A stretch of DNA of 64,000 nt from an uncultured Bacteroidia bacterium (GCA_903854235.1 CAINVV010000227.1:4065-68064), one strand, 5' to 3'. Counted from the first letter of the stretch, positions 25,221 through 44,281 are shown. The notes: generated by a model not told the origin, from the letters alone. Numbers and translations: made by a program.

Positions 25221-25228
25221 CTAGAACA

Positions 25229-28351: not shown

Positions 28352-29527
28352 TTAATACCAGGGGTGGTTCTTGAGAGGAACAATACCTTTTTCCTTTGTG
28401 GTCCCAAGGATGGTTCTGCCTCCGAGCCAGTTATCAGTCCTGAATTGCGAGAAATTCATCTGGGTCGGGTCAAAACTGTCGATCCTGACGAAACCAGAGG
28501 AGTTGATATAGGCCCCATTCCCAAGGTAAAGGCCAACGTGAGTCGCCTTGGCAGGGAGATCTCCCTCGGCTTTCTTGCCAAAGAAGACCAGGTCGCCAGG
28601 TTTTAGCTTACCATATCCGCTTTGCGGATCCGTAAAAATTCCGTGTCGAAATTGTAATGAAGCATCGCGGGCCAAAATGTAACCATTCAGGAAAAAGACG
28701 GTCTTCACAAATCCACTGCAATCCACCCCTTTCGTGGAGGTTCCTCCCCACAAATAGGGACGACCCAGGAGCGTTCGGGCGCATTTGCTTAAATCCTCTG
28801 CGGTTGGGAGCCCTTTTTCTTTCCACATGGAAAAGTCCATGGCTTCTTCCAAAGGGATGGACAACCTTCTTCCATCCGGCATTTCAACCACTACACTCTG
28901 CCTGGAGAATTCATCCAATTTGAGAATACTTCCGGCCACCAGATCTGTGACGGCCTCTTTTGTCTCAGGATTAAAACCTGAGCCAAGGTTGCCAAGATAG
29001 ATCACTCGCTTGTCTTTTCTCCAAGCATCCAATCCCAGAGCATCGGTCTGATAGATGGCATCATCATCGACCCAGCCCAGGTAGTGGTCGGGAGTCTGAA
29101 TATAAATCCAGCGCCCGGATTTCTTTAGCAGATGAACCGGAGTCCCAAGAATGGCCTGCGAGATCATTTCGGCACTGTGACCAGGCAAGGCGCGGATGTT
29201 GCAAACACTAACATTGACCAGTCCCCAGGTTTTTTCCCCCATTGATTCACCCGGTAGAACAAGTATGCTGTCAATCGCGACCAGATTCGCTTTTGCCAAA
29301 GCAGTGAGCAATGCCTGTTTACATTCCGGGGAACTGGTCTCTCCGGAGGCTGTAAGTTGGGACCCGGTTTCCCTGAAATGGATTTGAAACAAATCTTCCC
29401 GGCTATCTGGTGCACATTGTTGGGCCACAGACTTATAAATTTGCTCAGCCTCCCTAACCGGGGAAGTGTTCGGTTGGCAGCCCACGCAAAATGCGGTAAA
29501 AACCAAAAGGTGAAGGAGACGCAACAT
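28352..29527 (-). CDS. exported NlpC/P60 (C40) peptidase with N-terminal SH3b-like domains (YkfC-like gamma-D-Glu-diamino-acid endopeptidase)
   Basis: Signal peptide, catalytic 'GGTSTKGVDCSGFV' and 'THVGLYLGNGAYINSS', and an SH3-like N-terminal half. Confidence 0.85.
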   Translation of the reverse strand: MLRLLHLLVFTAFCVGCQPNTSPVREAEQIYKSVAQQCAPDSREDLFQIHFRETGSQLTASGETSSPECKQALLTALAKANLVAIDSILVLPGESMGEKTWGLVNVSVCNIRALPGHSAEMISQAILGTPVHLLKKSGRWIYIQTPDHYLGWVDDDAIYQTDALGLDAWRKDKRVIYLGNLGSGFNPETKEAVTDLVAGSILKLDEFSRQSVVVEMPDGRRLSIPLEEAMDFSMWKEKGLPTAEDLSKCARTLLGRPYLWGGTSTKGVDCSGFVKTVFFLNGYILARDASLQFRHGIFTDPQSGYGKLKPGDLVFFGKKAEGDLPAKATHVGLYLGNGAYINSSGFVRIDSFDPTQMNFSQFRTDNWLGGRTILGTTKEKGIVPLKNHPWY

Positions 29528-29731: not shown

Positions 29732-32728
29732 TTAATTGATGCCACAGTTTTTATAAATGATGCGTTGAATTTCTGTCCTCACATTCAGTTCACTGATCCT
29801 GTTGTTTTCCCGTGTCGGGAAGACACGATTCGACAAGAAGATGTAGACCAGTCCATATTTGGGATCGACCCATACGAAAGTGCCGGTATAGCCCGAATGG
29901 CCAAAGCTCTCGGGGGAGGCGGCTTTGATGGGATAGGCTTCTTTTTCGCTCAATCCTGAATTGTTCAGCAAGGGTTTGTCGAATCCCATTCCACGTCTGT
30001 TGTTGTTTTGTGGAAATTGCACCCGGGAGAACTCCTTCAGCGTCGATGCCTTCAGGTATTGCTCCCCACCGTAATTTCCCATTTGCAGGTACATCTGCAG
30101 TAGTTTGGCCAGGTCATTTGCGGAGGCAAAGAGACCGGCATTGCCGGAAATGCCTCCCAATACAGCCGAAGATTCATCGTGTACGGTGCCTAGCAGTTGT
30201 TGTTCTCGATAGTAATTATCCAGTTCCGTTGGGATAATCTCATTCTCGCTAAATTTAACCAACGGGTTGTAAGTAATCCGGTAGGCTCCAAGCGGTTTGT
30301 AGAAATTGGAATCCAGCTGCGCCAGATATGGTTTGCCTGAAATTGTGCCAGTGATTTTTGGGGTCAATACAAATGGAAGGTCGCTGTAGACATAACTGCC
30401 TCGGGATTTTAGGCGTGATTTTCGAATGATTTTGAAAACTCTATCTGGAAATTTATTCTCCAGATAGAGTCCCTTGGCTACCTGAAGCGGATGTTTTCTA
30501 TCGGCTTCAAAGGCATACCATGCTGCAGTAATTTTCCCCTTTTTCAACGTCTCTTTCCAAAATGGAAGAAATGGAATGAGACCTGATTGGTGCGCCAAAA
30601 GCTCCCTGACCGTAATATCCGATTTATTGCTTCTATGGAATATCCTGTTTCTCCATTCCGGATAGTAGGCCGAGACTTTCTCATCCGGATTGACTTTCCC
30701 TTCGTCGTATAGTTTCATCCAGGCAGGCAGGCCCGCTGTCATCTTGGTAACGGATGCCAGATCATATAAATCATTCTCACGCTCTGGAATGATCCGGTCG
30801 TAACCGTGGAAACCATAAGCCTTGTGGAAAATTACCTTCCCGTCTTTGGCCACCAGAACATTGCAACCAGGGAATGCTCTTTGCTCCAGGGCTCCAGAAA
30901 CAATGGAGTCGATCTGTCTGTTGATTCTATCAGAAGCTACTCCAACCTCCTCTGGCAAGGTATATTTTAGCCTGATAGATTTTGAAATCGAAATGCCTTC
31001 TCCCATCTTGAACTTCCCGGTTACGGAAACGGGAAGCTTACCTTTGGCCCCAATCCCTCCAAAAATAAGTTGGGCGGAAAGTTCCTGGGCGAGTGAGTCA
31101 TTTTGATAGGCCAACAAAATCCCATCCATCTTTAATGGTGCTTTTACCTCTCCCAAACCATAAGGACTGCAAAAAAAGGCAACAATTGTTTGTTGTTTGC
31201 CGGAAAGAAAAGTTAAAAGAGAATCTAACCCGCCTGTAACGCCATAAGGCCTTGATGGAAGTGCTTTTTGGTCGCTTCCTACCTGCATCGAATGACGAAG
31301 TTTGCTTTCGTACATGGAATGTACGCCGGTAATAACGAGGTCATACTCCCCCAGTTTCTTCTGAAGTTCCACCCTTTCGGACTCAGAAAAATCTTGTTTT
31401 AGTTGAAAATGATCCACCTTTGTGTAGTTGGCCAACATCCTCTGGAAGGGCGTAATTCGTTCGCTTCCTACAGCAACCGACGCGATGCGTGTACGCTCCA
31501 GGTGAGCTACAGGTATGACACCATTTCTGTTGTTTAAGAGGGTGAGGGAGGATTCAATTATCTTACGTTTGACGAGTTCGGTTGCAGGTGTATTCAGCTC
31601 TTTGACCAATAATCCGGTCTCGATTTTTATTTTGCGATTTAGTCCGCACCACAACTTGGCTGCCAGCACTTTTCTGCATTTTAGTTCAAGTTCCTCTCTG
31701 GATAATTCATTTTTTTTCAGGGCTTCCACGACGGATTTTACCACCAATTCGGGATCTGCCGGAAACTCCAGAACATCGTTTCCTGCTTTTAATGCCAGAA
31801 CCGCAGCCCTGCCAGGTTCAACGTAGCCATCTACCCCTTTCATGTTCATGGCATCTGTGAGGACCAGTCCTTTGAAATGCCATTCGTGGTGAAGGATCCG
31901 ATCTATTATCTGCGGGGATAGGCTGGAGGGCAGATTTTTGGTTGAATCCAATGCCGGAACTCGCAGGTGTGCAGTCATGATACATCCAATACCGGCCCTG
32001 GATAAAGCCTGGAAAGGATACATTTCAAGCGAATCGAGCCGTTGTTTGAAATAGGGGAGAACCGGAAGCAGCAGGTGGGAATCCGTCTGGGTATCTCCGT
32101 GACCAGGAAAGTGTTTGGCTGTTGCCAGGATTCCATTTTCCTGCAAGGCACGCATGCATGCCAGGCTAAAATCTGTCACTTGGTTGCGAGATTCTCCGAA
32201 AGAGCGCATGCCGATAATCGGATTCATCGGTTCTGTGTTGATGTCGCAGGAAGGACCGAGGGTGATGTTGATTCCGATTCGCCTCATTTGTTGTGCCATC
32301 TCTCTGGCTCCCTCCCGGGCGAGTGTGGTATCCCCGGTTGCACCTAGTGCCATGTTGTATGGAAAGGGGTTGATCCCCTGTAACCGCATGCCGATGCCCC
32401 ATTCTGCATCCATTGCAATCAAAAGGGGTGTGGTAGAAATGGATTGGTAGAAATTGGTCAGATTGGCCTGTGTCACGGGATCCCCTTCAAAAAAAATAAT
32501 TCCGCCAAACCCGTATTTTTTTATTAGATCGGCATTCTGCAACTGTTGGGATGGCTTATTCCTGGCTGTAACAGATATCCACACCAGTTGGCCGACCCTC
32601 TGTTCATTAGAAAGAGAGAGGTACACCGAATCCACCCAGGGATGATGCATCAATTTTTCAAGATCTACCTGGGAATACGCAACCTTATAAACAAAAAAGA
32701 TCAAGGCCAGAACAAAATATTTTTTCAT
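29732..32728 (-). CDS. exported NagZ-type GH3 beta-N-acetylhexosaminidase fused to a beta-lactamase-fold (AmiE/PBP4*-like) serine hydrolase domain
   Basis: Signal peptide. NagZ signature 'KHFPGHGDTQTDSH' (32075-32116). Nucleophile region 'GLVLTDAMNM'. C-terminal 'ASVTK' SxxK motif (30743-30754). 998 aa. Confidence 0.88.
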   Translation of the reverse strand: MKKYFVLALIFFVYKVAYSQVDLEKLMHHPWVDSVYLSLSNEQRVGQLVWISVTARNKPSQQLQNADLIKKYGFGGIIFFEGDPVTQANLTNFYQSISTTPLLIAMDAEWGIGMRLQGINPFPYNMALGATGDTTLAREGAREMAQQMRRIGINITLGPSCDINTEPMNPIIGMRSFGESRNQVTDFSLACMRALQENGILATAKHFPGHGDTQTDSHLLLPVLPYFKQRLDSLEMYPFQALSRAGIGCIMTAHLRVPALDSTKNLPSSLSPQIIDRILHHEWHFKGLVLTDAMNMKGVDGYVEPGRAAVLALKAGNDVLEFPADPELVVKSVVEALKKNELSREELELKCRKVLAAKLWCGLNRKIKIETGLLVKELNTPATELVKRKIIESSLTLLNNRNGVIPVAHLERTRIASVAVGSERITPFQRMLANYTKVDHFQLKQDFSESERVELQKKLGEYDLVITGVHSMYESKLRHSMQVGSDQKALPSRPYGVTGGLDSLLTFLSGKQQTIVAFFCSPYGLGEVKAPLKMDGILLAYQNDSLAQELSAQLIFGGIGAKGKLPVSVTGKFKMGEGISISKSIRLKYTLPEEVGVASDRINRQIDSIVSGALEQRAFPGCNVLVAKDGKVIFHKAYGFHGYDRIIPERENDLYDLASVTKMTAGLPAWMKLYDEGKVNPDEKVSAYYPEWRNRIFHRSNKSDITVRELLAHQSGLIPFLPFWKETLKKGKITAAWYAFEADRKHPLQVAKGLYLENKFPDRVFKIIRKSRLKSRGSYVYSDLPFVLTPKITGTISGKPYLAQLDSNFYKPLGAYRITYNPLVKFSENEIIPTELDNYYREQQLLGTVHDESSAVLGGISGNAGLFASANDLAKLLQMYLQMGNYGGEQYLKASTLKEFSRVQFPQNNNRRGMGFDKPLLNNSGLSEKEAYPIKAASPESFGHSGYTGTFVWVDPKYGLVYIFLSNRVFPTRENNRISELNVRTEIQRIIYKNCGIN

Positions 32729-32750: not shown

Positions 32751-34619
32751 TTAATCGAACTTTTCTAACGGATTCTTTTTCCCAAAATCCGGTTTTACAT
32801 TCAGAAAGAGTACCGGGATAACACCCGGAACCATGCACAACATCACCCACACAAAGAAATGCTTGTATCCGATAATCTCCTGCAACCATCCAGAGAACAT
32901 CCCTGGAAGCATCATACTCAGGGCCATAAATCCAGTGGCAATGGCAAAATGGGCGGTTTTATTTTCTCCTTCTGCAATGTAGATCATGTAAAGCATGTAG
33001 GCGGTAAAACCAAAACCATAGCTAAACTGTTCGATGGCAGCACACAGACTGATGATTAAATAGTTGGATGGCTGGGCATAGGCCATATAAACATAGGCTA
33101 CATGAGGGATGTTGATGGCAAGAACCATCCACCACAGCCAATACTTGAATCCCTTTCTGGAAGCAGCGAGGCCACCCAGAATACCTCCGGCTGTGAGCGC
33201 CAGAATACCAAAAGTGCCATAAATGAGGCCAACTTCACCGGTTGTCAGACCCAATCCACCTACCTGTCGCGGATCCAGCATAAACGGAGAGGCCATTTTT
33301 ATCAACTGTGCCTCTCCAAAACGATAGAACAACAAGAAGGAGAGTATGACCCAGATTTCCTTGCGCCTGAAGAATGAACCAAAGGTCCGGAAGAAGGCTC
33401 GAAACAGGTTTTCTTGTTCCTGGATGACCCTCTTGTCTGAAGGAGGATAGGGTAACATCAATCGGTGGTAAAAGGAGAATAGAACAAACAAAATGGCTAA
33501 TATAAGGAAAGTGAGACTCCAGGCGAGGTGAATGTTTCCGGAAGTTCCTTTAAAACTGGCTTCCGTTGGAGCATTGAGTTTGGAATCCGCCTGAAACAAA
33601 AGATAGGCAGGTTGCTCCCAGTTTTGTAGGTTAAAGGCCAGTCGCTCTCCTTCCAACAATCTAAGATCATTGTCTCCATCCTTCATTTTGAAATTTAGAA
33701 TCATCTCTTTACCTGCTTCCGGTTTGCCGTTCAGTTTGATGGCCACAATCGCCAGATTGCCAGTCATTTTTTCACCAGAGGTGATCCCTTCTGTTTTAGG
33801 AAAGTGTTTTTGAAGGAAGCTTTTCAGGGGAGAAGAGACATAATCGGACCAAAAGGAGGAACTGTCGTCTTTTCTACTGGCCGCCAATGGGTTGCCATTC
33901 CCTACAAACCCAAATTCGAGGTTGTGACTGGTGACGATTTTGCGCACTGAATCCATCTGCCTGGCAGTGATGTTTTGCGTCGTGAGACTGGCCACCTCGG
34001 GGAAAGCAGAAAAACTGGCAGTGCCGGATTGTGCCTTTGCATCCTGAAAAAGCTGGGGAATTGTGATCGTTCGTGCATAGGAAGGATTGGCTTTCACCTG
34101 GATATCAATCGGAGGCAATCCGGTTGTGGTCTCAAAATATCCAGCAAGAATGATTAACAACCCCTGACCAGTAATCATCGCAATGCGGTAAAAAGTACTT
34201 CTTATCCCAACAAAATAAGCTTGTTGGTGTTCATTAAGTCCTAGCATATAAAACCCATCGGCCGAAATATCATGCGTAGCTGAACTGAAAGCAAGCAACC
34301 AGAGGAAGATCAGGGTTATTTTGAAATAGCCAGGCAATGGAATGGCCAGAGCTACCCCCCCCAACGCAGCACCAATCACCAGTTGCATGAAAATAATCCA
34401 CCATCGCTTGGTTTTAAAGAGATCCACCACCGGACTCCATAATGGTTTAATGACCCAGGGTAAATAGAGCCAACTGGTATACAGGGCAATATCCGTATTT
34501 GAAATGCCAAGTCTTTTAAACATAATTACAGCAACGGTCATGGCCACTACATAGGGAACGCCCTCTGCAAAATAGAGGGTTGGGATCCAGGTCCAGGGGT
34601 TGCGGAAAGCTTTTTTCAT
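32751..34619 (-). CDS. ampG: AmpG-family MFS muropeptide permease with ~200 aa loop insertion
   Basis: N-terminus 'NPWTWIPTLYFAEGVPYVVAMTVAVIMFKRLGISNTDIALYTSWLYLPWVIKPLWSPVVD' is AmpG-like. Multiple TM segments. A hydrophilic block spans about residues 165-363. Confidence 0.8.
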   Translation of the reverse strand: MKKAFRNPWTWIPTLYFAEGVPYVVAMTVAVIMFKRLGISNTDIALYTSWLYLPWVIKPLWSPVVDLFKTKRWWIIFMQLVIGAALGGVALAIPLPGYFKITLIFLWLLAFSSATHDISADGFYMLGLNEHQQAYFVGIRSTFYRIAMITGQGLLIILAGYFETTTGLPPIDIQVKANPSYARTITIPQLFQDAKAQSGTASFSAFPEVASLTTQNITARQMDSVRKIVTSHNLEFGFVGNGNPLAASRKDDSSSFWSDYVSSPLKSFLQKHFPKTEGITSGEKMTGNLAIVAIKLNGKPEAGKEMILNFKMKDGDNDLRLLEGERLAFNLQNWEQPAYLLFQADSKLNAPTEASFKGTSGNIHLAWSLTFLILAILFVLFSFYHRLMLPYPPSDKRVIQEQENLFRAFFRTFGSFFRRKEIWVILSFLLFYRFGEAQLIKMASPFMLDPRQVGGLGLTTGEVGLIYGTFGILALTAGGILGGLAASRKGFKYWLWWMVLAINIPHVAYVYMAYAQPSNYLIISLCAAIEQFSYGFGFTAYMLYMIYIAEGENKTAHFAIATGFMALSMMLPGMFSGWLQEIIGYKHFFVWVMLCMVPGVIPVLFLNVKPDFGKKNPLEKFD

Positions 34620-34658: not shown

Positions 34659-35996
34659 TTATCTCTCATATCTTTTTTCAAGTTCTGCTCCCACAAAATA
34701 GTGTTTCAATATTTCTTCGTGAGCATACCCTTTTTCTCCCATCATGGCAGCACCGATCTGGCAAAGTCCGACACCATGGCCCCAACCGGCACCTGTTAAG
34801 ATGATTTTACCGGGGATGTTGTCACTCCACTCTTCGTAATCGACGACAAAAGCCGAGCTGTACAAATGTGAGTTGGACAGTATTTTCCTTATTTCCAATT
34901 CTTTGCCGACTGTTAATGTCTTCTTCGTACCGATTATCTTCATTTTTACTAGTCTGCCAGAATTTCCCCTTTCAACAGGTTGGATTCCAATAATTAGTCC
35001 GAAATCAAATCCGGTTTTTCTTAGAAGGAGTTCAGAAAGCTCAGATTGCCCAAAGGTTACCTTCCACCTGTAAAAATCCATGGTTTCCTGATCGTAGTCG
35101 TTAAGCACCTGTGAAAGGACCTTGTGATCGGTGGTGTTGCAAAAAGCATCGGGAGAAGAGCGAATCCATTTATCTGCCTCGCGTTCATTTGTCAGCACCG
35201 GAACGTCCCTGATATGACCTTCAGGTGTGTCATAGAAAGTCTGCAAGTAAGGATGAACCTCCGGTTCCCATACTTTTTCAAAGGTTTCCGTCGCACCACC
35301 GCAACTCTTGGAGAAACGTGCATCACACACTTGTCCCTCAAACATCAAGACCATACCGAAGGTATCGGTTACTGCTCTTTCAACGAGATTGCTGCTTTGA
35401 CGTGTAATGCCCTGATAGCGTTGACAGTGGTCATCGGCGCAAACATCAAATAGTTGATGATCTTCCCGGTCATACCATCGAATGTATTCTTCCTTTGTTT
35501 GATGGATGGTTTGGTAGTTGACTTTGGATGCTCTTAAGTCACTCCCTTTTACGACCTGAGCTATTAGCCAGGAGCGGGAGATGACTGCATGTGCCTTCAA
35601 CAGTTCCAGGCTGCTGGTGGCGCTCATCTCAGAGGAGATTACACTAATCAGATAATCTTCCAACGGTAAAATATTAATGGCCTGAAGTTTATTCCCTTCC
35701 GGAAGAAATTGGAGGGCGCCTTTAAATAGTTGATCTTCCTTTCGCTCCCAGTGGAATTGCACCCCAATGGTAACATCGGACAGTTCGAAGGAACAGTTGT
35801 TTGCATTCAGTGGAATAAAAGTAAGATCGGGTTGGTCAAAGGGCAGACCATTGAGCGAAATTTTCCCATCTTCCAAACGGATGACCTGTTTCCCAGAACA
35901 GATGGTCCCATTTTCAAACTGCGTATATTCACCGTTGAGGCAAAAACGAATTTCCGTTTCTGCCATGATCCCTATCTTCAATTGTGGCTGATTCAT
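34659..35996 (-). CDS. SpoIID/LytB-domain protein without a detectable signal peptide
   Basis: 'AHAVISRSWL', 'CQRYQGI', 'FSKSCGGATE' and 'GWGHGVGLCQIGAAMMGEKG'. ATG 35996 gives a TAAcATG junction with the upstream gene; ATG 36059 is an alternative. Confidence 0.8.
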   Translation of the reverse strand: MNQPQLKIGIMAETEIRFCLNGEYTQFENGTICSGKQVIRLEDGKISLNGLPFDQPDLTFIPLNANNCSFELSDVTIGVQFHWERKEDQLFKGALQFLPEGNKLQAINILPLEDYLISVISSEMSATSSLELLKAHAVISRSWLIAQVVKGSDLRASKVNYQTIHQTKEEYIRWYDREDHQLFDVCADDHCQRYQGITRQSSNLVERAVTDTFGMVLMFEGQVCDARFSKSCGGATETFEKVWEPEVHPYLQTFYDTPEGHIRDVPVLTNEREADKWIRSSPDAFCNTTDHKVLSQVLNDYDQETMDFYRWKVTFGQSELSELLLRKTGFDFGLIIGIQPVERGNSGRLVKMKIIGTKKTLTVGKELEIRKILSNSHLYSSAFVVDYEEWSDNIPGKIILTGAGWGHGVGLCQIGAAMMGEKGYAHEEILKHYFVGAELEKRYER

Positions 35997-35997
35997 G

Positions 35998-36978
35998 TTA
36001 AATGACCTCCCTTTGAAATTTGGAAATGGATTGGCGAAGTCTTTGAAAACCTTCGTCATCCAAAGTTACCTGGTTAAAAATATCCAAAATAACCGATTCT
36101 GTTATTTTTTCGTAATCCTCATGGCGCGGGGTGATGAAGACCCCGCCAAAATCAACGGCAGCAGGACTAATGAGCAGTTGCCTGTCACCCTCCTCAAAAA
36201 ACTGGGAAGGGCGATGCAGTTTGCGCGGGAAGAGATGAATGATCCATTTCCCCTCCTTAAAATAGCTGAGCAGGTTCATCATCGGCTCCACCTTGCCCGG
36301 TTGAAGTTCTCCCAAGCTACTGGTGACGTACTCCAAAGCGGATACCCCAGCTTCCGCACGCTCAAATTCAAAGGAAATCATCTTTCTGACATAGTTTCCA
36401 AAAGCCCATATTTTTAATCCTTCCGATTGATGGAGTAGATATTCGGTTTGGATTTTTAAGGTTTCAAAATCTTCTTCGACAGGCATAAAACCATTTTCTC
36501 CGGCTTGAAAATGGAGATGGTCGGGTGCAGAAGCTCCACATTCCGGACCATTGTAAAACACGGTGTAGCCTGTCATTTGAAGGGCAAATTCCAACAGGGC
36601 GGGAAAATTTCCACTGATTAGCTGGTCTGTATGGTGAAGAAATGGAAGTGTGAAATGGATCCGAAAGATCGGAAAGGGATTGACCAGAAGCAGAAAATCG
36701 TGCCCCATCAGGAGATGTCGCTGCTCCTCAGGACGATTTTCGGTACATAAAAAGCATTTTCGTGCGGTGATGGAACCCCTGTCCACTTTGGCAGCAGAAG
36801 ATCGTATTCTTTCGGGATTGAATTGAATCCTGAACTTCCATCCATTAAGGGTTAGATCCCGCTCTACTACCTGGTCCAGGTTGCGGTAATTGTCGTACGA
36901 GAGCTTCCAGTCATGGTTTTGGTCTATCAGAAAATTTCTGTACCTGTCGTTTTTTTGTACCATTTTTTTATGCACCAT
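35998..36978 (-). CDS. DUF4922-like protein, HIT superfamily GalT/Ap4A-phosphorylase/GDP-L-galactose-phosphorylase branch
   Basis: 'FYNGPECGASAPDHLHFQAG' (HxHxQ at 36505-36519), 'IQFNPERIRS' and 'LLLVNPFPIFRIHFTL'. No signal peptide. Confidence 0.7.
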   Translation of the reverse strand: MVHKKMVQKNDRYRNFLIDQNHDWKLSYDNYRNLDQVVERDLTLNGWKFRIQFNPERIRSSAAKVDRGSITARKCFLCTENRPEEQRHLLMGHDFLLLVNPFPIFRIHFTLPFLHHTDQLISGNFPALLEFALQMTGYTVFYNGPECGASAPDHLHFQAGENGFMPVEEDFETLKIQTEYLLHQSEGLKIWAFGNYVRKMISFEFERAEAGVSALEYVTSSLGELQPGKVEPMMNLLSYFKEGKWIIHLFPRKLHRPSQFFEEGDRQLLISPAAVDFGGVFITPRHEDYEKITESVILDIFNQVTLDDEGFQRLRQSISKFQREVI

Positions 36979-38437
36979 TTTTATCCTTGTTCATCGCCTT
37001 CCTGGCAAGGAATTCGATGGTCCTGATTCTGTCTTTGTAAAGATTGTGTCCATTCATCACCTCCACGCTTAAGGAGGCATCTGAATTGTCGTCCCATCTT
37101 CGGCAAAGATAAATTGGGTCATAGATTCTGCCAATCTGGTAATGTCTCGAAATAGCCAGTCCGAGGGCATAATCTTCGCCATAATTCACATTGGGCACTT
37201 TTATACAGCGAAGGACCGGTGTATAAAAGGCTCTTGGCGCGCCTAATCCATTAATTCGCAATGCATTATTTCGGCCATTATCGGGCGTCCATTCCTTATG
37301 GTCAATGATTCCAGGCGGAATTTCCTCGAGCGCAAAGTTGACCATCTTGTAGGAACCCACCACCATGGCACATTGCTCCCTGTAAAAAGCATCCACCACT
37401 TGCTGAAGGGTCGTCTCATCGAGATAAAGATCGTCGCTGTCCAGTTGAACCGCAAATTTTCCACACAGAGGGTGCGCCGCCGCTGCATTCCAGCAACCAC
37501 CTATACCCAAATCCTTGCGGTCAGGAATGAGATGAATCAGCCTGGCATCTTTTTCGGCATATTTCTCGATAAGTTCAGTAGTCCCATCTGTCGAGTAGTT
37601 ATCGGCGATGATCAGGTTAAAAGAAAAATTGGCTTTCTGGGAGAGGACGGAGACAATGGCATCTTCGATGGTACGCACCCGGTTTCTGACCGGTATAATC
37701 ACGGATGCTTCCACGGGAAAAGACTCCGCGTTAAAGTCGACTGGGTGAAAAGTAGGCTCGAGATAGGCCCCCGAAGTTTTAAGAAAGCTGGTACAGACTT
37801 TTTCCATCTCGACCTGTACGGCCCGATTTTTGGGATCCACATAATCGAAGATTTTCTCACCAGAGAGACGAAGGTCGGATTCCTCTTCGGTATAGAGATA
37901 CTCTGGAATCCTGAAAATCGGAGCAATCAACGATAGTTGGAGGCGGAGCGCATAAAGGCCAGCACGGGAAAGTCCCTTGTCGACCTGTGCGGCTGCCATT
38001 TTGAAATACTCACTCTTGTAAAACAGGAGTGAACCAAAATTGAAATCATCCCGCAAGCCACCTTCCTGATAGTCTATCACAGGATTTACCTCGGGAATAC
38101 CTGATTTCACCGCCAGATAATTCGAATAGAGCATTCCGCTACCGGTATCTTCGGCTATTTGTACAAAGCGTTCCAGGGCAAACTGGCTCAATTTCAGCGG
38201 ACTGTGCCTAGTATAGAGCAGCATATATTCCGAACGACCTTGGGCGGCGATGGTCTGAATGGCGGATCCACTGGTCATGCTATCCGTGTAAAGCCATTCA
38301 GCACCTTCCACGTCAAAAAGGGCCTTCTCAGATCCAATCAGAAATATTTTGGCAATCAAGGCAGAACTTCTCAGTTCCCTGACTGTTGCCTTTGTCTCAT
38401 TTTCACTCCCAAAAGGGATAAAACAGGTAATCTTCAT
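36968..38437 (-). CDS. family-2 glycosyltransferase with ~240 aa N-terminal extra domain
   Basis: C-terminal half has 'ASVIIPVRNRVRTIEDAIVSVLSQ', 'IIADNYSTDGT' and 'VQLDSDDLY' (DxD). The N-terminal half starts 'KITCFIPFGSENE', which is GT-A-like but degenerate. Confidence 0.8.
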   Translation of the reverse strand: MKITCFIPFGSENETKATVRELRSSALIAKIFLIGSEKALFDVEGAEWLYTDSMTSGSAIQTIAAQGRSEYMLLYTRHSPLKLSQFALERFVQIAEDTGSGMLYSNYLAVKSGIPEVNPVIDYQEGGLRDDFNFGSLLFYKSEYFKMAAAQVDKGLSRAGLYALRLQLSLIAPIFRIPEYLYTEEESDLRLSGEKIFDYVDPKNRAVQVEMEKVCTSFLKTSGAYLEPTFHPVDFNAESFPVEASVIIPVRNRVRTIEDAIVSVLSQKANFSFNLIIADNYSTDGTTELIEKYAEKDARLIHLIPDRKDLGIGGCWNAAAAHPLCGKFAVQLDSDDLYLDETTLQQVVDAFYREQCAMVVGSYKMVNFALEEIPPGIIDHKEWTPDNGRNNALRINGLGAPRAFYTPVLRCIKVPNVNYGEDYALGLAISRHYQIGRIYDPIYLCRRWDDNSDASLSVEVMNGHNLYKDRIRTIEFLARKAMNKDKNGA

Positions 38438-38464
38438 TTGTTATAATTTTTCATGTTTTGCCTG

Positions 38465-41400
38465 CTATTTTTTATCCAGAACCCGAATCACTTGGCCAAT
38501 CAGAGCATCCCGTTCCTCCGTTGTGGATATCGTTTCGATCGGAATACCAAGAACGACGGCTGCATATTTGCCCTTGAAACAGACTCCGGCACTTTTGTTG
38601 TCCCCAAAATAGCGAAAAAGAACGGATGCCCCATTCCCGGCAGGTTCAATGGCGTCGGGCGATTCTACTTTGTAAATGGTTGGATGCCAATTGTTCACAT
38701 AGTGATAGGCTTCGATATTTTTTTCTTTCCAACCATTGACTGTGTAAATAAGACCAGATTTTGAGCCGTGGCTGGTTCGTAGCGTGTAGTGAAGGGTTTC
38801 GGCTGCGAATTTTTTTGACAGCGAATCTCCACACAACGATAGGTCTGATCCTAGATAGGCGCCAGACAACAACAACTTGGCCCCATCATAATTGGCTATT
38901 CTGGTTAAGGCAGCTCTCATCCCCGGGGTAAAAATGGTGAAGTCCCTACCGGGAAAGCCAATGGACCTGCTGGTAGTCTTCTCTTCCCCAAAAATCAGAT
39001 CTACTATCGAGAAAGAGGGGGTATTTATTTGTTGCTTTTCAAAAGCTTCGTCGCTCATTGAGATAAATCCGAATCCATTGTTTCGGAATGATTTTCCGTG
39101 AACATAGGGATAGTCGAAACTATTTCCAGGAACAATCCGGGTCTCCTGGTCTGCGTGACTGGATCCAAAACCGGAAGCATCATCATCCAGCCAAGGGGAT
39201 TTGCGGTCAAAATCATACTGCTCTCCAATGTAGGATACGTTTTTAAGGTAGGAAACTCCTTCATCTTCCGACATCAGGAAGCCTGCCTTTTTACCGTTGT
39301 CGTAGGCTGCCGGAGCACATATTCTATCGAAGCCATTGACGATAAGTACTGGTTTCTTCCCGTCGATGGGAAGGGAGCAGGCGAGAATCTCGGATGGAAA
39401 GCTCTCACCGCCTTCATTGAAGGCGGTCACTTTGAAGCTGACAATCGTCCCTGGCTTCAGATTTGTAATTGACAAGGTAGTATCCCTGACTACAATCCCT
39501 TCATCAAATCCATCATCTTCAATCCGTTTGTATACCCTGTACCCAGATGGTTTTGCGGTGGGTTCAAGCAGATCAGTTACAGGAGTCCAGGAGAGTATCA
39601 AACGATTTTCCTCCAGGTTCATGGCCATATGGTCTACTGGCAATGGCTGAACGACGTAGGGAAACCCGTTCTGATAGGAAAGAAATTTTAATATTCCTTT
39701 GTAGAAGGCACGGCAAACATCGAACTTGAACCGGGGGTCCTGGGCGAGATACATGTCCGCGAAATTCTGGTGGGAGAGCAATTCAGACAAGATGGCCGGC
39801 ACTTTGGGTCTTGCCGCCTCAAAATATTTTTTATTCCAGAGTCCTCGCCTGGTCCAGTCGGCTTTGTGCAATTTTTGCAAATCACCCACCACCTGGGATT
39901 GAACGATATCTGCAAGATCGCGGCTGGCCCATTTGGACTGTCCGTTGGGAAAAGTCTCCTTATCAAAGGAGGTATCGAAAATCATCAGGGAACCGATGAT
40001 GGAGCTGTCGGGAGTGGTTCCTGCGTCGGTATGAAAGGCCATCGACAAATCCATCGGAATGCCCATCCCTTTCACATGAGGAGCCTTGGTAGGTCCATTG
40101 GGATCACCCATCAGGTAATTGACAAATTCACCCCGGCTCATGTAGTCGTCCTTGTAGTCCTCCTTGCCGCTTTCGCGCTGGGCAAAATTGGCAGCATCAG
40201 ATCCACGGTTGGAATAATCGACCTTGGTACGGTTCAGGTTGTACACAATCGAATCGGGAAATCCTGCGTACTGGAGGTAGTACCTGGCCGCCTCCTGGTA
40301 TCGGGGGCGTTGACTGGTGAAGGGAATCCAAGCCGTTGAATCCATCTTCCAACCCTTCTTTTCGCGTAGTTCATACAATTTTTTCAGTTGAGGCTCATTC
40401 CCGCGCACGATGTTTCCAGTCCCCCCACCGAAACGCACCGCATCTGCGGAGATCATTTTCCCGGGTTCACCGGAAGAATTGGCCAGCAAAACCATTCCCC
40501 GCTCTGGATGTTTGCCTTTTTCAAATTTGAAGGTCCCAAGGTAGATCCAAGTCCCTCCACCGATCGACTGGTTTACCCTGAAGGTCGTTTGTCCACCGGC
40601 ATGGGAGATGGTGTAGCTTGCATCCGTTGCATTTTTTTCGCTTTGGAGATAGGAGATGTAAACGGCATAATAGTCTGTTTCAGGAATTTCCGGAACGTAT
40701 TTGGCAAACGCATCAGCTGTTGATTTGGCTGCGACGGTTCGGGTGTGACCAAACTGGAATGGATTTTCCCCGTCGAACAAAAAAGGATATTTGAATGCAA
40801 ATCCTGGCTGAACTGAGTTTTGCCAGTTTTCACCCTCCTCCTTGTATTCAGACCCGGGGGAAGATCCTTCTGCATCCACTACGACTTCTCTGTAGCCGAA
40901 ATCCCTTTCGCGGGGTAACCACACCGTGGCTCCGGCATTCTCGAGCATCGGAGTCAGGTAGGGAACCACAAAACCAAGCGTCCAGATATCCTCAACGGTC
41001 AGGAAATCCCTTGCCCGCTGCCATTCCCAACGATCCAGCGTGTTTTCGTAATACCATCCGTGGCTGTGCCATAGGGAGATGTTCCGGTTGTCCAGCCCTT
41101 TGGGGAACTTTACATCCCGAGTTAGGTTGCGGGCCACCTGAGCGGGTCTTGGTCTGTTCACCGTCAGACGAGCGGAGTCGATCCGGTCTGATTTGCTTCG
41201 ATAAAAATTAGGGACCAATTCTCCGATTTCTTTCCCCATGGTGGTGATGGTGAGGTTGCTTTTTTTGAATTTTCTACCGAGCAACAGCCTGTAGTCGGTG
41301 TAATATTTTTTTATATCCTCCGGTCGGAAGGGGATTTCACAGAAGGAAGGGTTCATAACCAGTTGGAGGATATCCCCCTTTGGGTTCATTTTGACGGTAT

Positions 41401-41605
41401 CCATCCTGAATTTATAGTTTGTACCCGCAGAAACTTGTATGGCAAACTCTTTGGAAGCCTCTTTGGCCTTTTTGTAAAGCCGCTGTTTCTTATCAGCCAT
41501 GGATACCTGCGTCAGCATTAGCAGGGCAAAGATCAGTAGCATTAATCTTGACAGAGGCAAAGCATATCCTTGCGTTCGATGGCAACTCAGGCGATATTTT
41601 TTCAT
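38465..41605 (-). CDS. 1046-aa exported multidomain protein: split Amidase_3-like (MurNAc-L-Ala amidase-fold) region with a large beta-rich insert, an Fn3 domain, and an unknown ~300 aa C-terminal domain
   Basis: ATG 41605 lies 8 nt after the upstream stop and gives the signal 'LMLLIFALLMLTQVSMA'. Amidase-like motifs 'LWHSHGWYY', 'TVEDIWTLGFVVPYLTPMLENAGATV', 'MAFHTDAG' and 'ILSELLSHQNFAD'. The insert contains 'GGGTWIYLGTFKF...ISADAVRF'. Fn3-like segment at about residues 655-745. Confidence 0.65.
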   Translation of the reverse strand: MKKYRLSCHRTQGYALPLSRLMLLIFALLMLTQVSMADKKQRLYKKAKEASKEFAIQVSAGTNYKFRMDTVKMNPKGDILQLVMNPSFCEIPFRPEDIKKYYTDYRLLLGRKFKKSNLTITTMGKEIGELVPNFYRSKSDRIDSARLTVNRPRPAQVARNLTRDVKFPKGLDNRNISLWHSHGWYYENTLDRWEWQRARDFLTVEDIWTLGFVVPYLTPMLENAGATVWLPRERDFGYREVVVDAEGSSPGSEYKEEGENWQNSVQPGFAFKYPFLFDGENPFQFGHTRTVAAKSTADAFAKYVPEIPETDYYAVYISYLQSEKNATDASYTISHAGGQTTFRVNQSIGGGTWIYLGTFKFEKGKHPERGMVLLANSSGEPGKMISADAVRFGGGTGNIVRGNEPQLKKLYELREKKGWKMDSTAWIPFTSQRPRYQEAARYYLQYAGFPDSIVYNLNRTKVDYSNRGSDAANFAQRESGKEDYKDDYMSRGEFVNYLMGDPNGPTKAPHVKGMGIPMDLSMAFHTDAGTTPDSSIIGSLMIFDTSFDKETFPNGQSKWASRDLADIVQSQVVGDLQKLHKADWTRRGLWNKKYFEAARPKVPAILSELLSHQNFADMYLAQDPRFKFDVCRAFYKGILKFLSYQNGFPYVVQPLPVDHMAMNLEENRLILSWTPVTDLLEPTAKPSGYRVYKRIEDDGFDEGIVVRDTTLSITNLKPGTIVSFKVTAFNEGGESFPSEILACSLPIDGKKPVLIVNGFDRICAPAAYDNGKKAGFLMSEDEGVSYLKNVSYIGEQYDFDRKSPWLDDDASGFGSSHADQETRIVPGNSFDYPYVHGKSFRNNGFGFISMSDEAFEKQQINTPSFSIVDLIFGEEKTTSRSIGFPGRDFTIFTPGMRAALTRIANYDGAKLLLSGAYLGSDLSLCGDSLSKKFAAETLHYTLRTSHGSKSGLIYTVNGWKEKNIEAYHYVNNWHPTIYKVESPDAIEPAGNGASVLFRYFGDNKSAGVCFKGKYAAVVLGIPIETISTTEERDALIGQVIRVLDKK

Positions 41606-41613
41606 AAGTGCAA

Positions 41614-42735
41614 TTAAACTTTGATAAATATTTTCTTTTTGAACAAAAAATACCCCAACAACCAGAAGAGAAAAACGTGGGATATGGCAAAGAGCAACGA
41701 TCCATTCAACTCTCCTGCCAGAGGCAGAAACACATTGTTGTACAACCAGGCTGAGCCGCTTATCATTTTCCCATTGGTCGAGGGAATCTGGATCAACCTG
41801 CCGAGAATCCTGGCCCATAATCCGGAGAAGGCAAAGATAAAAAGGGGGTTTACCCCGAACACGATAAAGAAGGAACACCAGTAGGAATATCCTTTCAAAT
41901 CGATAAGCCAGATCAACAAGGCGAGCATTAAGGAGGCCCAACCAGCAGAATATAAAACATAGGAGCTGGACCAAATTGGTTTCGAAATGGGAAAATAGAG
42001 ACCCCATAACCAGCCTGTAATCACTGCAAGAATGCCAGCCACAGCCAGCGTGAGGGGAACTTTCCCTTTGGGGGTCTCTTTGATGACGGATCCTGCCAGG
42101 TACCCAATCACCACCGTGACGATGGAGGGCAGGGTGCTGAAAATCCCCTCGGGATCGAACGGAATCCCAAAACCTCTGTAAAGATGATCTACGCCCAGCC
42201 AGGCTGTATCAAAAGGAATGGCAGGATTGCCCTGAAGGGAATATGGGTCTGTTCCTCCTCCCCAAGCAACCAATCCCCAATATAGGAGGAGGATCAATCC
42301 GCTTGCAAAAGGCAAATATTTCTTGTTCATGGATAAAACGAGCAAAGCTGCCAGTCCGTAGGCCAACGCAATCCGCTGCAAAACTCCCATGATTCTCAAA
42401 TGGGCATAGTCAGCACTCCATTGGGGAAAAGAATTCAAGAAGAGGCCTATCGCAAAGATCAAAAGGGTGCGTTTCCCTATTTTCAGCAGGGATTCCTTGT
42501 TCAATCGGTTGCCATATTTGGAGAATGAAAAAAACATGGAAGCCCCGACCACAAAAAGAAAGAAGGGAAATACCAGATCAGTTGGAGTACACCCCTGCCA
42601 GGCAGCATGTTCCAGGGGAGCATATATATGTGCCCAGCTACCGGGATTGTTGACGAGAATCATCAATGCCACGGTCATCCCCCGAAGTACATCCAGGGCA
42701 AGATACCTTTGGTTGTTTGGTGATATGTTTTCCAT
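41614..42735 (-). CDS. DUF5009/DUF1624 membrane acyltransferase (heparan-alpha-glucosaminide N-acetyltransferase-like, NagX-like)
   Basis: 'RYLALDVLRGMTVALMILVNNPGSWAHIYAPLEHAAWQGCTPTDLVFPFFLFVVG' plus about 10 further hydrophobic segments. Confidence 0.78.
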   Translation of the reverse strand: MENISPNNQRYLALDVLRGMTVALMILVNNPGSWAHIYAPLEHAAWQGCTPTDLVFPFFLFVVGASMFFSFSKYGNRLNKESLLKIGKRTLLIFAIGLFLNSFPQWSADYAHLRIMGVLQRIALAYGLAALLVLSMNKKYLPFASGLILLLYWGLVAWGGGTDPYSLQGNPAIPFDTAWLGVDHLYRGFGIPFDPEGIFSTLPSIVTVVIGYLAGSVIKETPKGKVPLTLAVAGILAVITGWLWGLYFPISKPIWSSSYVLYSAGWASLMLALLIWLIDLKGYSYWCSFFIVFGVNPLFIFAFSGLWARILGRLIQIPSTNGKMISGSAWLYNNVFLPLAGELNGSLLFAISHVFLFWLLGYFLFKKKIFIKV

Positions 42736-42739
42736 CTTG

Positions 42740-44281
42740 TCAGTGTTTAACGAATTTAACCGGTTTGCTTTCCAAATGCGTTGGACTCAGCGCCGTTACA
42801 ACATATCGGAAACGGGATGGCCTGTATCCTTTTGCTCCATTTAGCAGCAATTTTTGGTAGGAAGTGATGGCAATGATCTTGTTGGGGTGATCGGTATTTT
42901 TACGCTGCAATATTTTATAACGATAAACCACATACAGGCTGTTGTTCTCTTGCCTCTGCCACGACAAAACGATGTTTTTTCCTTCGCGTTGAAGGGTGGC
43001 ATTCCCCGGTTCTGCAGGTATCACAGGATCAATTCTCGGGTTGACAGGAGTTAAGGAAGGAAATTTATAATGCTCATTTAGGAGCTTTTCCCTGATGCCA
43101 AGGGGATTGCTTTTCAGGAACTTGGCACTGAAATACATGCTGCCTTTAATTTCAGTGATGGTTCGGTTTAAACTAAGCTGCCGGTTGATTTCGTCGGAAC
43201 TTCTCCAAGCCGGGTCTTTCGATGCTGGATCGAGCAGATACAAGGCTTGTCCCGTATAAATGTTGCAACCATAACTGTGATCGGCCCACCATTTTACCAG
43301 AATTTTGTAGTCAGCAACCTCTTTCCCAATGTACCAGTAAAGTTGCGGGGTAACGTAGTCGATCCATTTTTCCTGTTGCCATTTGAGGATGTCCGCATAC
43401 AAATCATCGTAATTGGAGACGCCGGCTCTCGTATCAGATCCGTTTGGGTCATTTTTTTTGTTGCGCCATACTCCAAAGGGAGATATGCCGAACTCGACCG
43501 TAGGTCGGATGGCCTTGATGCTGTCGTGCAATTGCTTGATGATAAGATCCACGTTGTTTCGCCGCCAATCCTCCTTTTGCTGGGGACCAAAATTTCCAGC
43601 AAATTTTTTGAAGGACTTATCATCGGGAAAATCAGCTCCGGAGATTTTGTAGGGGTAAAAATAGTCATCGAAATGAATGGCATTGATGTCATAGCGCCTC
43701 ACAAGATCACTGACGACATTGGCAACATGGTTGCGAACAGCAGGAATACCCGGATCAAAATACTTCTTGTTTCCATAGGTAACCATCCACTCGGGATGGG
43801 TATTGACCACATGATTGGGAGCAGCCTTTGTTTTTTCCGTGTTTTGGATGGCCCGGTAAGGGTTGAGCCACACGTGGATATCCAAGCCTCTCTTCCGGCA
43901 CTCTTCAATGGTGAATTGCAGCGGATCGTACCAGGGATCCGGTGCGACACCCTGTTTGCCTGTCAGCCACTCTGACCAGGGTTCAATGGTTGAATAATAA
44001 AGGGCATCTGCATCGGGCCGGATCTGAAAAACAACCGTGTTCAGGTTATAGGCCTTCACCGAATCCAGCAAGGTTATCATTTCGGCTTGCTGTTCGGCTG
44101 TGGTTAAATGGGAACTGGATGGCCAGTCAATGTTCTCGACGGTTGCAATCCATACGGCCCTCATCTCCCGTTTGGGGTATTCCTTGTTTTTGGCTGAAAC
44201 TGTCAATCCAACCATCCATAGAACAATAAATAAGTATTTCAGCTTCTTCACGAGATAGATCTTTAATATATTGTGGTACAA
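42740..44281 (-). CDS. exported GHL10 / UPF0748 glycosyl-hydrolase-like protein (YddW/DigH, YngK family)
   Basis: Signal peptide, then 'EMRAVWIATVENIDWPS' and a TIM-barrel-like pattern ('IHVWLNPYR', 'IHFDDYFYP'). Confidence 0.75.
   Translation of the reverse strand: MYHNILKIYLVKKLKYLFIVLWMVGLTVSAKNKEYPKREMRAVWIATVENIDWPSSSHLTTAEQQAEMITLLDSVKAYNLNTVVFQIRPDADALYYSTIEPWSEWLTGKQGVAPDPWYDPLQFTIEECRKRGLDIHVWLNPYRAIQNTEKTKAAPNHVVNTHPEWMVTYGNKKYFDPGIPAVRNHVANVVSDLVRRYDINAIHFDDYFYPYKISGADFPDDKSFKKFAGNFGPQQKEDWRRNNVDLIIKQLHDSIKAIRPTVEFGISPFGVWRNKKNDPNGSDTRAGVSNYDDLYADILKWQQEKWIDYVTPQLYWYIGKEVADYKILVKWWADHSYGCNIYTGQALYLLDPASKDPAWRSSDEINRQLSLNRTITEIKGSMYFSAKFLKSNPLGIREKLLNEHYKFPSLTPVNPRIDPVIPAEPGNATLQREGKNIVLSWQRQENNSLYVVYRYKILQRKNTDHPNKIIAITSYQKLLLNGAKGYRPSRFRYVVTALSPTHLESKPVKFVKH

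Follow-up and report, generated by a model that had tools for sequence, protein, structure and literature searches.

The 64,000-nucleotide stretch of DNA analyzed here, called the window throughout, derives from an uncultured Bacteroidia bacterium (GCA_903854235.1 CAINVV010000227.1:4065-68064). Positions 34659-41605 hold four consecutive minus-strand genes, named G1 to G4 in the order of transcription, that encode an exported multidomain protein, a tandem GT-A glycosyltransferase, a DUF4922 protein, and a SpoIID/LytB-fold protein; a gene for an AmpG-like permease lies directly downstream. Comparison with related loci leads us to redraw the unit as GT2–DUF4922–SpoIID plus AmpG, with G1 as an accessory, and the three intracellular enzymes probably make up a route, not described before, by which imported cell wall is reused. 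An earlier note, written from the sequence of the window, had singled out G1 to G4 as a tightly packed core. Reading of the open reading frames (ORFs) recovered all four, at 1046, 489, 326, and 445 aa, and the junctions described there held base by base. The TAG of G1 is followed after 27 nt by the ATG of G2, the TAA of G2 falls within ATGGTGCATAAAAAAATGG and leaves either an 11-nt overlap or a 4-nt gap to G3, G3 and G4 meet at TAA-c-ATG with GGAGG ahead of the start codon, and 39 nt separate G4 from the start of ampG. An independent gene caller, applied to an identical metagenome contig, gave 1046 aa with the same start for G1 and 488 aa for G2, and G+C content across the region is even (0.44-0.48). 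The packing is real, but it does not set these four genes apart: they belong to a unidirectional 12-gene array (27132-48391, minus strand, 21 kb) in which other junctions, of 4, 8, 18, and 22 nt, are just as tight.

G2 (36968-38437, minus strand; 489 aa) is a soluble protein for which Pfam annotation and the AlphaFold model together indicate two GT-A domains. Glycos_transf_2 (PF00535) covers residues 245-379 only, at 71.3 bits against a cut-off of 23.3, and a Pfam scan of the N-terminal domain returned no match. The model has a predicted local distance difference test (pLDDT) score of 72 overall, rising to 80-94 over residues 1-105 and 240-360. Foldseek ranked the chondroitin polymerase K4CP first, aligned over both GT-A domains (E = 1.8e-16), followed by TarS, TarP, and CgT, all of them, K4CP included, at a probability of 1.00. 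The predicted tandem architecture is thus shared with two-domain GT-A enzymes such as K4CP and LH3, but identity to K4CP is approximately 14%, the N-terminal domain (residues 1-240) carries Y-T-R where a DXD motif would stand, and G2 shows no sign of polymerase function. This N-terminal domain has invariant loops of its own and is most likely a binding or regulatory domain. Among 24 sequences 66-87% identical to G2, D333, S334, D335, and D336 (within QLDSDD) as well as E421 and D422 are invariant, and the DXD motif and E421-D422 are the predicted metal/nucleotide-binding and catalytic residues. All NCBIfam equivalogs scored far below their cut-offs on G2, the best being TuaG (52 bits versus 400). 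Mean identity to the window protein across 24 loci was 62% for G2, 58% for G4, and 48% for both G1 and G3; the conservation of G2 matches that of a core enzyme and points to strong constraint. Neither G2 nor G3 has a signal peptide or transmembrane segment visible by eye.

G3 (35998-36978, minus strand) comprises 326 aa, or 321 aa if translation begins at the second ATG (36963). Its DUF4922 domain (PF16269) spans residues 17-160 and scores 197.2 bits against a cut-off of 23.6. The HIT-type HxHxQ motif that the earlier note had spotted, a nucleotidyl-transfer motif of the GalT/Ap4A-phosphorylase branch, is H154-L-H156-F-Q158; together with C75-x-x-C78, H108, and H116, it is invariant in 23 G3 sequences, and it is retained in every DUF4922 fusion protein found (see below). 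A G3 profile also matched the yeast Ap4A phosphorylase Apa2 (4i5t) across the HxHxQ/HKHLQ region (E = 1.3e-3). DUF4922, within the HIT superfamily, is the domain of the phosphorylases acting on guanosine diphosphate (GDP)-D-glucose (GDPGP1) and GDP-L-galactose (VTC2), and on this family membership G3 is predicted to be a nucleoside-diphosphate-sugar phosphorylase or a nucleotidyltransferase. With VTC2 and GDPGP1 it shares the Pfam domain and the HxHxQ motif. A second, C-terminal half-domain, GDPGP1_C (PF26216), may also be present: it is precomputed for all close homologues, labeled weak in two loci (L082 and L086), and absent from our local Pfam scans of G3. G3 differs from VTC2 and GDPGP1 in being bacterial, in its genetic tie to a GT2 and a SpoIID-fold protein, and in its conserved CxxC, a pair that we take to be a feature of the GalT zinc site as well. 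The anabolic-type activities that the earlier note attributed to the glycosyltransferase and this protein are not forced by these data, given that the Pfam family of G3 has been characterized only through GDP-hexose phosphorylases, enzymes of a degradative type. A structure model of G3 was considered and set aside as evidence: pLDDT is 71, with the active-site loop below 50, and Foldseek returned a weak HIT-like match first (4qvu, E = 0.018) and then kinase noise, while the C-terminal half, modeled at 80-95, had no significant match.

G4 (34659-35996, minus strand; 445 aa) combines a SpoIID/LytB fold with an extra N-terminal domain of ~100 aa to which a Pfam scan assigned no family. The mechanical ORF extends to 36059, and we placed the start at 35996 because every orthologue begins at the equivalent position. 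TIGR02669 (SpoIID/LytB) scores 170.9 bits against a cut-off of 83.3, and the sporulation SpoIID equivalog TIGR02870 reaches 137.8 bits of the 234.75 needed. G4 aligns to Bacillus anthracis SpoIID (4rwr), including the S-E-M and G-H-G-V-G-x-x-Q-x-G-A motifs, and the S-E-M and GHGVG motifs recur identically in DUF4922–SpoIID fusion proteins. The Glu of S-E-M is presumably catalytic. A signal peptide or hydrophobic N-terminal segment is absent from G4 and from all 48 of the 48 orthologues examined, which instead begin M-x-x-P-x-I-x-V-G-I; the protein is therefore a signal-less SpoIID/LytB homologue, as first proposed, and would be cytoplasmic. This is the main departure from the SpoIID/LytB proteins of Bacillus subtilis, Clostridioides difficile, and Waddlia, with which G4 shares the domain and catalytic-region motifs: the characterized SpoIID proteins are exported enzymes that work on denuded glycans and cooperate with amidases, whereas G4 and its orthologues lack a signal, have the extra domain, and in some cases are fused to a cytoplasmic enzyme. 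The B. subtilis and Waddlia proteins digest denuded glycan strands, and one SpoIID homologue acts hydrolytically, using water as the nucleophile in a muramidase reaction on such strands.

G1 (38465-41605, minus strand; 1046 aa) consists of a signal peptide, an amidase-like region, a Golvesin_C module, an fn3 domain, and a C-terminal region of ~300 aa. Pfam places Golvesin_C at residues 284-392 (86.6 bits) and fn3 at residues 662-741 (35.8 bits). The amidase-like catalytic region is interrupted by the Golvesin_C module, which is of a carbohydrate-binding type, and Amidase_3 matches residues 519-639 over profile positions 69-173 only, the C-terminal 60% of the profile, at 20.1 bits against a gathering score of 27. 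An intact split amidase was considered and rejected, as splicing out the insertion raised the score to only 25.3 bits versus 27 and did not recover the N-terminal part of Amidase_3, the match still being confined to profile positions 66-173. A profile of 21 G1 orthologues matched no amidase structure in the PDB. H182, E205, H525-x-D527, and E608 are invariant in those 21 orthologues, and their mapping to zinc-amidase ligands was made by eye; the pattern is compatible with a zinc amidase, and we call G1 amidase-like on that basis. Of the earlier description as an exported split-amidase/Fn3 protein, the signal peptide and fn3 domain stand, and the amidase call comes from a sub-threshold Pfam match combined with motif reading. 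The sole PDB sequence match of G1 is the C-terminal module of the Paenibacillus xanthan lyase 6f2p, reached through Golvesin_C, and this match accounts for the "xanthan lyase" annotations of G1-type genes. Pfam assigns no family to residues 1-283, 393-520, or 745-1046. The last of these segments (38465-39373) forms a strongly conserved C-terminal domain with the invariant motifs LIVNGFDR, QYDFDR, PGNSFDYP, and VE-PDAIEP, for which neither a Pfam family nor a PDB sequence was matched.

The AmpG-like permease (32751-34619, minus strand; 622 aa) matches TIGR00901, MFS_1, and BT1. TIGR00901, the AmpG family, scores 173 bits against a cut-off of 350 in two stretches split by an insertion of ~190 aa, and AmpG equivalogs score 79-84 bits against 656-756. 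The permease is presumed to be the importer feeding the trio; transport itself is demonstrated only for its T. forsythia counterpart. The insertion (residues ~166-365; 33525-34124, minus strand) is soluble and has no Pfam match; it is missing from the 420-427-aa AmpG proteins of four other loci (L061, L082, L083, and L087). It would face the periplasm, since hydrophobic segments and a K/R-rich loop, read by eye, place it between transmembrane segments 5 and 6. In this it is similar to a domain of Acinetobacter AmpG1 that lies in the periplasm and binds the lytic transglycosylase Slt.

To define which of these genes travel together, relatives were collected by anchoring on G3, with one genome per species. 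This yielded 585 confirmed relatives, of which the best 80 loci were retained, at ~20 kb each. These 80 come from Bacteroidales, Prolixibacteraceae and other Marinilabiliales, Rikenellaceae, Prevotellaceae, Cyclobacteriaceae, and Ignavibacteriota, and a few are metagenome-assembled genomes (MAGs) labeled Acidobacteriota, Verrucomicrobiota, or Bacillota. Presence was scored by tblastn with the window proteins in the 47 loci having at least 6 kb on both sides of DUF4922, and adjacency was scored from ORFs on 46 loci. A GT2 lies near DUF4922 in 42/47 loci, SpoIID in 32/47, and G1 in 30/47; AmpG lies within 10 kb in 28/47, GH9+CE4 in 25/47, and MurQ in 22/47, and at least one peptidoglycan-linked family is present in 42/47. 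The GT2 gene is directly upstream of DUF4922 in 39 of the 46 loci, and 20 of the 46 have the complete colinear G1-G2-G3-G4 block. The tight junctions recur in these loci: the projected distance between G1 and G2 has a median of 22 nt and that between G3 and G4 a median of 8 nt, and in many loci G2 and G3 overlap. Across Bacteroidales, Marinilabiliales/Prolixibacteraceae, Rikenellaceae, and Ignavibacteriota, the block genes recur with ampG, murQ, a BadF-type kinase, NamZ, GH3, and GHL10; further recurrent neighbors are a GntR/FCD regulator, a GH18 protein with a type IX secretion system tail, and an SSF transporter. The block could have proven unconserved or tied to exopolysaccharide or capsule loci; instead, its genes recur together in cell-wall contexts, and no lipid-carrier, flippase, or polymerase gene is among the recurrent neighbors.

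The smallest versions of the locus identify the core. L082 encodes a BadF-type kinase, a GT2, a GNAT–DUF4922 protein (8001-9533), SpoIID, and AmpG, joined by 4-nt overlaps; L087 encodes GHL10, a GT2–DUF4922 fusion, SpoIID, and AmpG; L086 has a GT2 and then a DUF4922–SpoIID fusion; and L083 has a DUF4922–SpoIID fusion and then AmpG. AmpG adjoins trio genes in L082, L083, and L087, and the four minimal modules sit in unrelated genomic surroundings. A 218-aa ORF between DUF4922–SpoIID and AmpG in L083 had no family match and no similarity to the window proteins or to the AmpG insertion. G1 is absent from all four minimal modules and is an exported accessory outside the conserved core. What had been called a four-gene core is thus a conserved block whose core is G2-G3(-G4). 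The co-occurrence counts of 42, 32, and 30 of 47 for GT2, SpoIID, and G1 likewise place the evolutionary core in the cytoplasmic trio GT2–DUF4922–SpoIID. A group of six Prolixibacteraceae loci (L008, L009, L012, L014, L015, and L016) has another arrangement, in which G1 is directly followed by DUF4922 and then by NamZ, GH3, or a small ORF, and neither GT2 nor SpoIID is detectable; these may represent a second, reduced locus type.

Gene fusions connect the trio members pairwise. A DUF4922 profile was searched against 1.84 billion cluster representatives, which returned 1996 family members at E <= 1e-3, and the best 150 were inspected. Among these, GT2 and DUF4922 form single proteins of 806 and 785 aa (P0268 and P0380), and DUF4922 and SpoIID form single proteins of 732-784 aa (P0309, P0398, P0365, and P0366) that fall into at least four clusters with mutual identity below 50%. 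Five full-length proteins, for which 13 contig occurrences are listed in all, belong to the P0309 cluster, and another fusion cluster is represented on a 459-kb contig; for these reasons, the DUF4922–SpoIID fusions are not assembly accidents. One further candidate, a 759-aa DUF4922–SpoIID ORF in L045 (9959-12238, from a long-read MAG), was discarded as a probable indel artifact. At the same place, the stop and start codons overlap as the usual ATGA in the close relatives L041 and L060, the L045 frame is shifted by an indel just upstream, and the GT2 gene is split in L060, a neighboring MAG from that series. A GNAT domain is fused to the DUF4922 N-terminus in P0337 (three members), and the same GNAT stands beside AmpG in three Ignavibacteriota loci (L052, L061, and L079).

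Upstream of G1, the array encodes, by Pfam and NCBIfam annotation and all on the minus strand, GH9+CE4 (45845-48391), a transglutaminase-like protein (44384-45826), an exported GHL10 protein (42740-44281) two genes before G1, and a NagX-like membrane acetyltransferase (41614-42735) 8 nt before G1 that scores 139 bits, below its cut-off; gaps from GH9+CE4 through G1 are 18, 102, 4, and 8 nt. Beyond G4 and AmpG follow an exported 998-aa GH3 + beta-lactamase-domain protein (29732-32728), an NlpC/P60+SH3 peptidase (28352-29527), and an L-Ala-D/L-Glu epimerase/N-acetyl-D-Glu racemase-like protein (27132-28268). A sugar-kinase-like gene (48669-49514, plus strand; weak NagK_SO3507 match only, E = 4.4e-6) and murQ, encoding N-acetylmuramic acid (MurNAc) 6-phosphate etherase (49524-50342, plus strand; NF003915 at 360 bits against a cut-off of 168), form a pair divergent from the array, and G1 has this divergent pair next to it in 21-22 of the 47 loci. 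A SusC-like TonB-dependent transporter and a SusD-like protein (21828-27055, plus strand) converge on the end of the array. No terminator was found in any intergenic gap of the array, and sigma-70 promoter-like and terminator-like sites occur only at chance level. The sole Rfam match in the 64-kb window is a distant tRNA gene (13023-13106, plus strand), with no family in the array. We tentatively read the locus as a peptidoglycan-scavenging and recycling array, and the whole region, together with the SusC/SusD pair, may be a peptidoglycan utilization locus.

Several of these neighbors have features of their own. GH9+CE4 is an exported fusion of a GH9 glycosidase and a CE4 polysaccharide deacetylase whose gene lies between SpoIID and AmpG in most Bacteroidales loci (L025-L056), where the two genes overlap by projection (median -20 nt from SpoIID stop to GH9+CE4 start); it may deacetylate muropeptides and then remove their N-acetylglucosamine (GlcNAc). 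The GHL10 gene also stands immediately upstream of GT2–DUF4922 fusions in L085 (4968-6467) and L087 (1474-2979). C. difficile Cwp19, of the GHL10 family, is reported to be a lytic transglycosylase, and by analogy GHL10 may be the true periplasmic source of anhydro-muropeptides at the locus. The GH3 + beta-lactamase protein comprises a signal peptide, a GH3 N-acetylglucosaminidase domain, and a beta-lactamase/PBP4B-like domain, a three-part architecture shared with RmNag3 of Rhodothermus marinus, a characterized beta-N-acetylglucosaminidase that bears a signal peptide and is taken as periplasmic. The N-terminus of the epimerase-like protein, MKANRRTFLEATSLAAGAGFLSS, resembles a twin-arginine export signal; judged by this sequence, a peptide-recycling enzyme that is normally cytoplasmic may be periplasmic here. 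An acetylation theme recurs as well, with the NagX-like homologue (of a transmembrane glucosamine N-acetyltransferase) beside G1 and a GNAT in other lineages. Downstream of AmpG, 13 loci (L039, 16628-19558, and 12 others) encode a 976-aa protein of the D-lactate-dehydrogenase type, with FAD-oxidase and 4Fe-4S parts, which could plausibly consume the D-lactate freed by MurQ; no copy is among the ORFs listed for window positions 20000-56000.

The block is not a new sighting. The ampG operon of Tannerella forsythia (Tanf_08345-Tanf_08385) has been published with the same gene order (Ruscitto 2017; Mayer 2020; Borisova 2021 preprint): Tanf_08345 "xanthan lyase", 08350 and 08355 "gtf", 08360 "lytB", 08365 ampG, 08370 ybbC (namZ1), murT, murK, and murQ. 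It is a single transcript activated by GppX, and it was first described as glycosylation related, with altered surface glycoproteins in the gppX mutant. T. forsythia AmpG imports GlcNAc-MurNAc and GlcNAc-anhydroMurNAc (anhMurNAc), and supernatants of the ampG mutant accumulate disaccharides only. The organism uses GlcNAc-anhMurNAc as a MurNAc source with no predicted AnmK, and it lacks glmS, glmU, murA, and murB. The functions of 08345-08355 are given as unknown and 08360 as a putative lytic transglycosylase (Borisova 2021 preprint); lytB is also annotated as an amidase enhancer. Our literature searches on DUF4922, the Tanf genes, SpoIID with AmpG, and anhMurNAc in Bacteroidota led, for the trio genes, only to these T. 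forsythia papers, in which the genes are called unknown. The window shares the order G1-G2-G3-G4-ampG and also has murQ and a kinase-like gene close by, but its array contains neither namZ nor murT, its murQ pair is divergent and not downstream, and it adds GH9+CE4, GHL10, the transglutaminase-like, NagX-like, GH3 + beta-lactamase, and NlpC/P60 proteins, and the epimerase. That Tanf_08355 ("gtf") is the DUF4922 protein is inferred from position only, and the 80 retained loci include no T. forsythia sequence. In comparison with the recycling pathways of E. coli and Pseudomonas (AmpG-NagZ-AmpD-AnmK-MurQ or MupP-AmgK-MurU), the window has the AmpG entry and the MurQ end, but its array encodes no cytoplasmic NagZ, AmpD, or AnmK, its GH3 is exported, and a GT2, a HIT protein, and a SpoIID protein stand in their place.

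From the genes present, their conservation and fusions, the missing signal peptides, and the family memberships observed above, we infer substrates, a direction, and an assignment of steps. We give a probability of roughly one in three to a scheme in which the trio, acting as one assembly, processes AmpG-imported GlcNAc-(anhydro)MurNAc through a nucleotide-sugar intermediate. The invariance of their key motifs suggests that all three proteins are catalytically competent. The exported GHL10, amidase-like G1, GH3, GH9+CE4, and NlpC/P60 proteins would cut the wall to peptide-free GlcNAc-MurNAc and GlcNAc-1,6-anhydroMurNAc, and AmpG would bring these disaccharides into the cytoplasm. G4 would then open the 1,6-anhydroMurNAc ring, a lytic-transglycosylase reaction run in reverse with water as the nucleophile; this step is proposed because the anhydroMurNAc end is the sole lytic-transglycosylase-type ligand in the cytoplasm. 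A less likely role for G4 would be the cutting of imported peptide-free oligosaccharides. G2 would move the beta-1,4-linked GlcNAc between the disaccharide and a nucleoside diphosphate (NDP), and G3 would interconvert NDP-GlcNAc plus phosphate and GlcNAc-1-phosphate plus NDP. Both proteins are predicted to handle NDP-sugars, and they are fused in some lineages, which suggests that NDP-sugar and NDP are passed between them. The net, reversible reaction would be disaccharide plus phosphate to GlcNAc-1-phosphate plus MurNAc, a "split phosphorylase" whose products would pass to nucleotide-sugar synthesis and to the kinase and MurQ, respectively. The catabolic direction is proposed because it fits the importer, kinase, and MurQ, and an amino-sugar-1-phosphate intermediate, as in GlmU, would fit the GNAT domain that is fused to DUF4922 or stands beside AmpG. 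The trio would also fill the T. forsythia steps that have no assigned enzyme, given that AnmK and GlmU are missing there; two such tasks are the handling of the 1,6-anhydro ring and the cleavage or reuse of the beta-1,4-linked GlcNAc. The broader claim that SpoIID-fold ring opening and a GT2/HIT split phosphorylase replace NagZ and AnmK as an ATP-sparing route in Bacteroidota and Ignavibacteriota is more speculative still, and on the sequence data at hand we regard it as doubtful.

A number of points weigh against this scheme. Reverse transfer by an inverting GT-A enzyme is uphill, with K ~10^-3 by our own rough estimate, and the first half-reaction would consequently need fast removal of MurNAc or a nucleotide outside the large pools, that is, one other than uridine diphosphate (UDP); the GDP specificity of known DUF4922 members would fit the latter. 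For bonds of this kind, dedicated phosphorylases made of a single protein are known; a solution with two proteins is not parsimonious by comparison, and we know of no precedent for a two-protein phosphorylase. To our knowledge, ring opening by a SpoIID fold has never been reported either. The genomic data add their own difficulties. L076 has a signal-less GH3 directly after GT2–DUF4922, which would make a NagZ-like role for the pair redundant; L083 has no GT2 within 8 kb; and in 5 of the 47 loci the GT2–DUF4922 pair has no peptidoglycan gene within 10 kb. The G3 structure model is weak, as described above, and orthology to the T. forsythia genes is proposed from their published annotation and order.

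The same genes can be read in the opposite direction, as an anabolic salvage shunt (the first hypothesis of the earlier note) in which G3, acting as a Leloir-type nucleotidyltransferase or as a phosphorylase in reverse, makes a nucleotide sugar from GlcNAc-1-phosphate or MurNAc-1-phosphate (the product of an anomeric kinase) and either G2 builds a glycoside from it or the sugar feeds wall synthesis. This is a serious rival with a modest chance of being right, and it would give T. forsythia a GlmU-independent route: that organism, for all its missing genes, must make UDP-GlcNAc and UDP-MurNAc. The GNAT–DUF4922 fusion mirrors the acetyltransferase and nucleotidyltransferase logic of GlmU, the structural matches of G2 after K4CP include TarS and TarP, which use UDP-GlcNAc, VTC2 has reportedly been described as a guanylyltransferase too, and NahK and GalT form an N-acetylhexosamine salvage pair in bifidobacteria. 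Yet no acceptor for G2 is apparent, and Pfam places G3 in the phosphorylase family DUF4922 and not in the GalT family. Most carriers of the module are free-living Bacteroidota, which are expected to have GlmU and MurA/B, and the shunt leaves the cytoplasmic SpoIID protein and its fusion to G3 unexplained. A more conservative reading of G4 does accommodate that protein: AmpG would also import peptide-free tetrasaccharides or longer fragments, G4 would act inside the cell as a SpoIID lytic transglycosylase or muramidase of the usual kind, and G2 and G3 would modify or cap the fragments, as in the second hypothesis of the earlier note. The activity of the B. subtilis and Waddlia enzymes on denuded strands, the production of such strands expected of an amidase-like G1, and the size of a tetrasaccharide, which we estimate to be close to that of the disaccharide-pentapeptide carried by AmpG, all speak for it. 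We nevertheless consider it unlikely, as the disaccharides in T. forsythia ampG mutant supernatants are unaccompanied by longer fragments, internal formation of anhydroMurNAc would be a disadvantage to a cell lacking AnmK, and our analysis found no specific support for capping or remodeling by G2 and G3.

Two further explanations detach the proteins from cytoplasmic recycling. The GT2–DUF4922 pair could be a general glycosylation or nucleotide-sugar quality-control unit that merely often lies beside ampG, in line with the original labeling of the T. forsythia operon as glycosylation related, the altered glycoproteins of the gppX mutant, the five loci in which the pair has no peptidoglycan gene nearby, and GDPGP1, which is reported to be a nucleotide-sugar pool quality-control enzyme. 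With at least one peptidoglycan-linked family in the other 42 loci, with SpoIID fusions and an adjacent AmpG even in minimal modules of unrelated surroundings, and with lipid-carrier, flippase, and polymerase genes absent from the recurrent neighbors, we find this improbable. Least probable of all is that G4 leaves the cell by an unrecognized route and works with G1 as a periplasmic amidase and transglycosylase machine resembling SpoIIP/SpoIID. Characterized SpoIID proteins are indeed extracytoplasmic and cooperate with amidases, and G1 and G4 share an operon, but a signal peptide is missing from all 48 orthologues, several independent lineages have G4 fused to the C-terminal side of the cytoplasmic DUF4922, and G1 is absent from minimal modules that keep G4.

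The routes of muropeptide recycling have been worked out well in Proteobacteria; the same is not true of Bacteroidota, which are dominant in gut, oral, and sediment communities. The periodontal pathogen T. forsythia, which is unable to make MurNAc, depends on the operon described above, and two or three of its cytoplasmic steps have no assigned enzyme. To the published operon, the present analysis adds the conservation of the trio across two phyla, the fusions, the genetic tie to AmpG, the predicted cytoplasmic location of the SpoIID-fold protein, and a testable mechanism, and it reduces the problem to three soluble proteins. If true, a SpoIID-fold enzyme in the cytoplasm and a couple of glycosyltransferase and HIT phosphorylase would each be new enzymology, and the ATP-sparing route, if it exists, would account for the ability of T. 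forsythia to live without AnmK and GlmU. The pathway is also relevant to how gut Bacteroidota release immunostimulatory peptidoglycan fragments.

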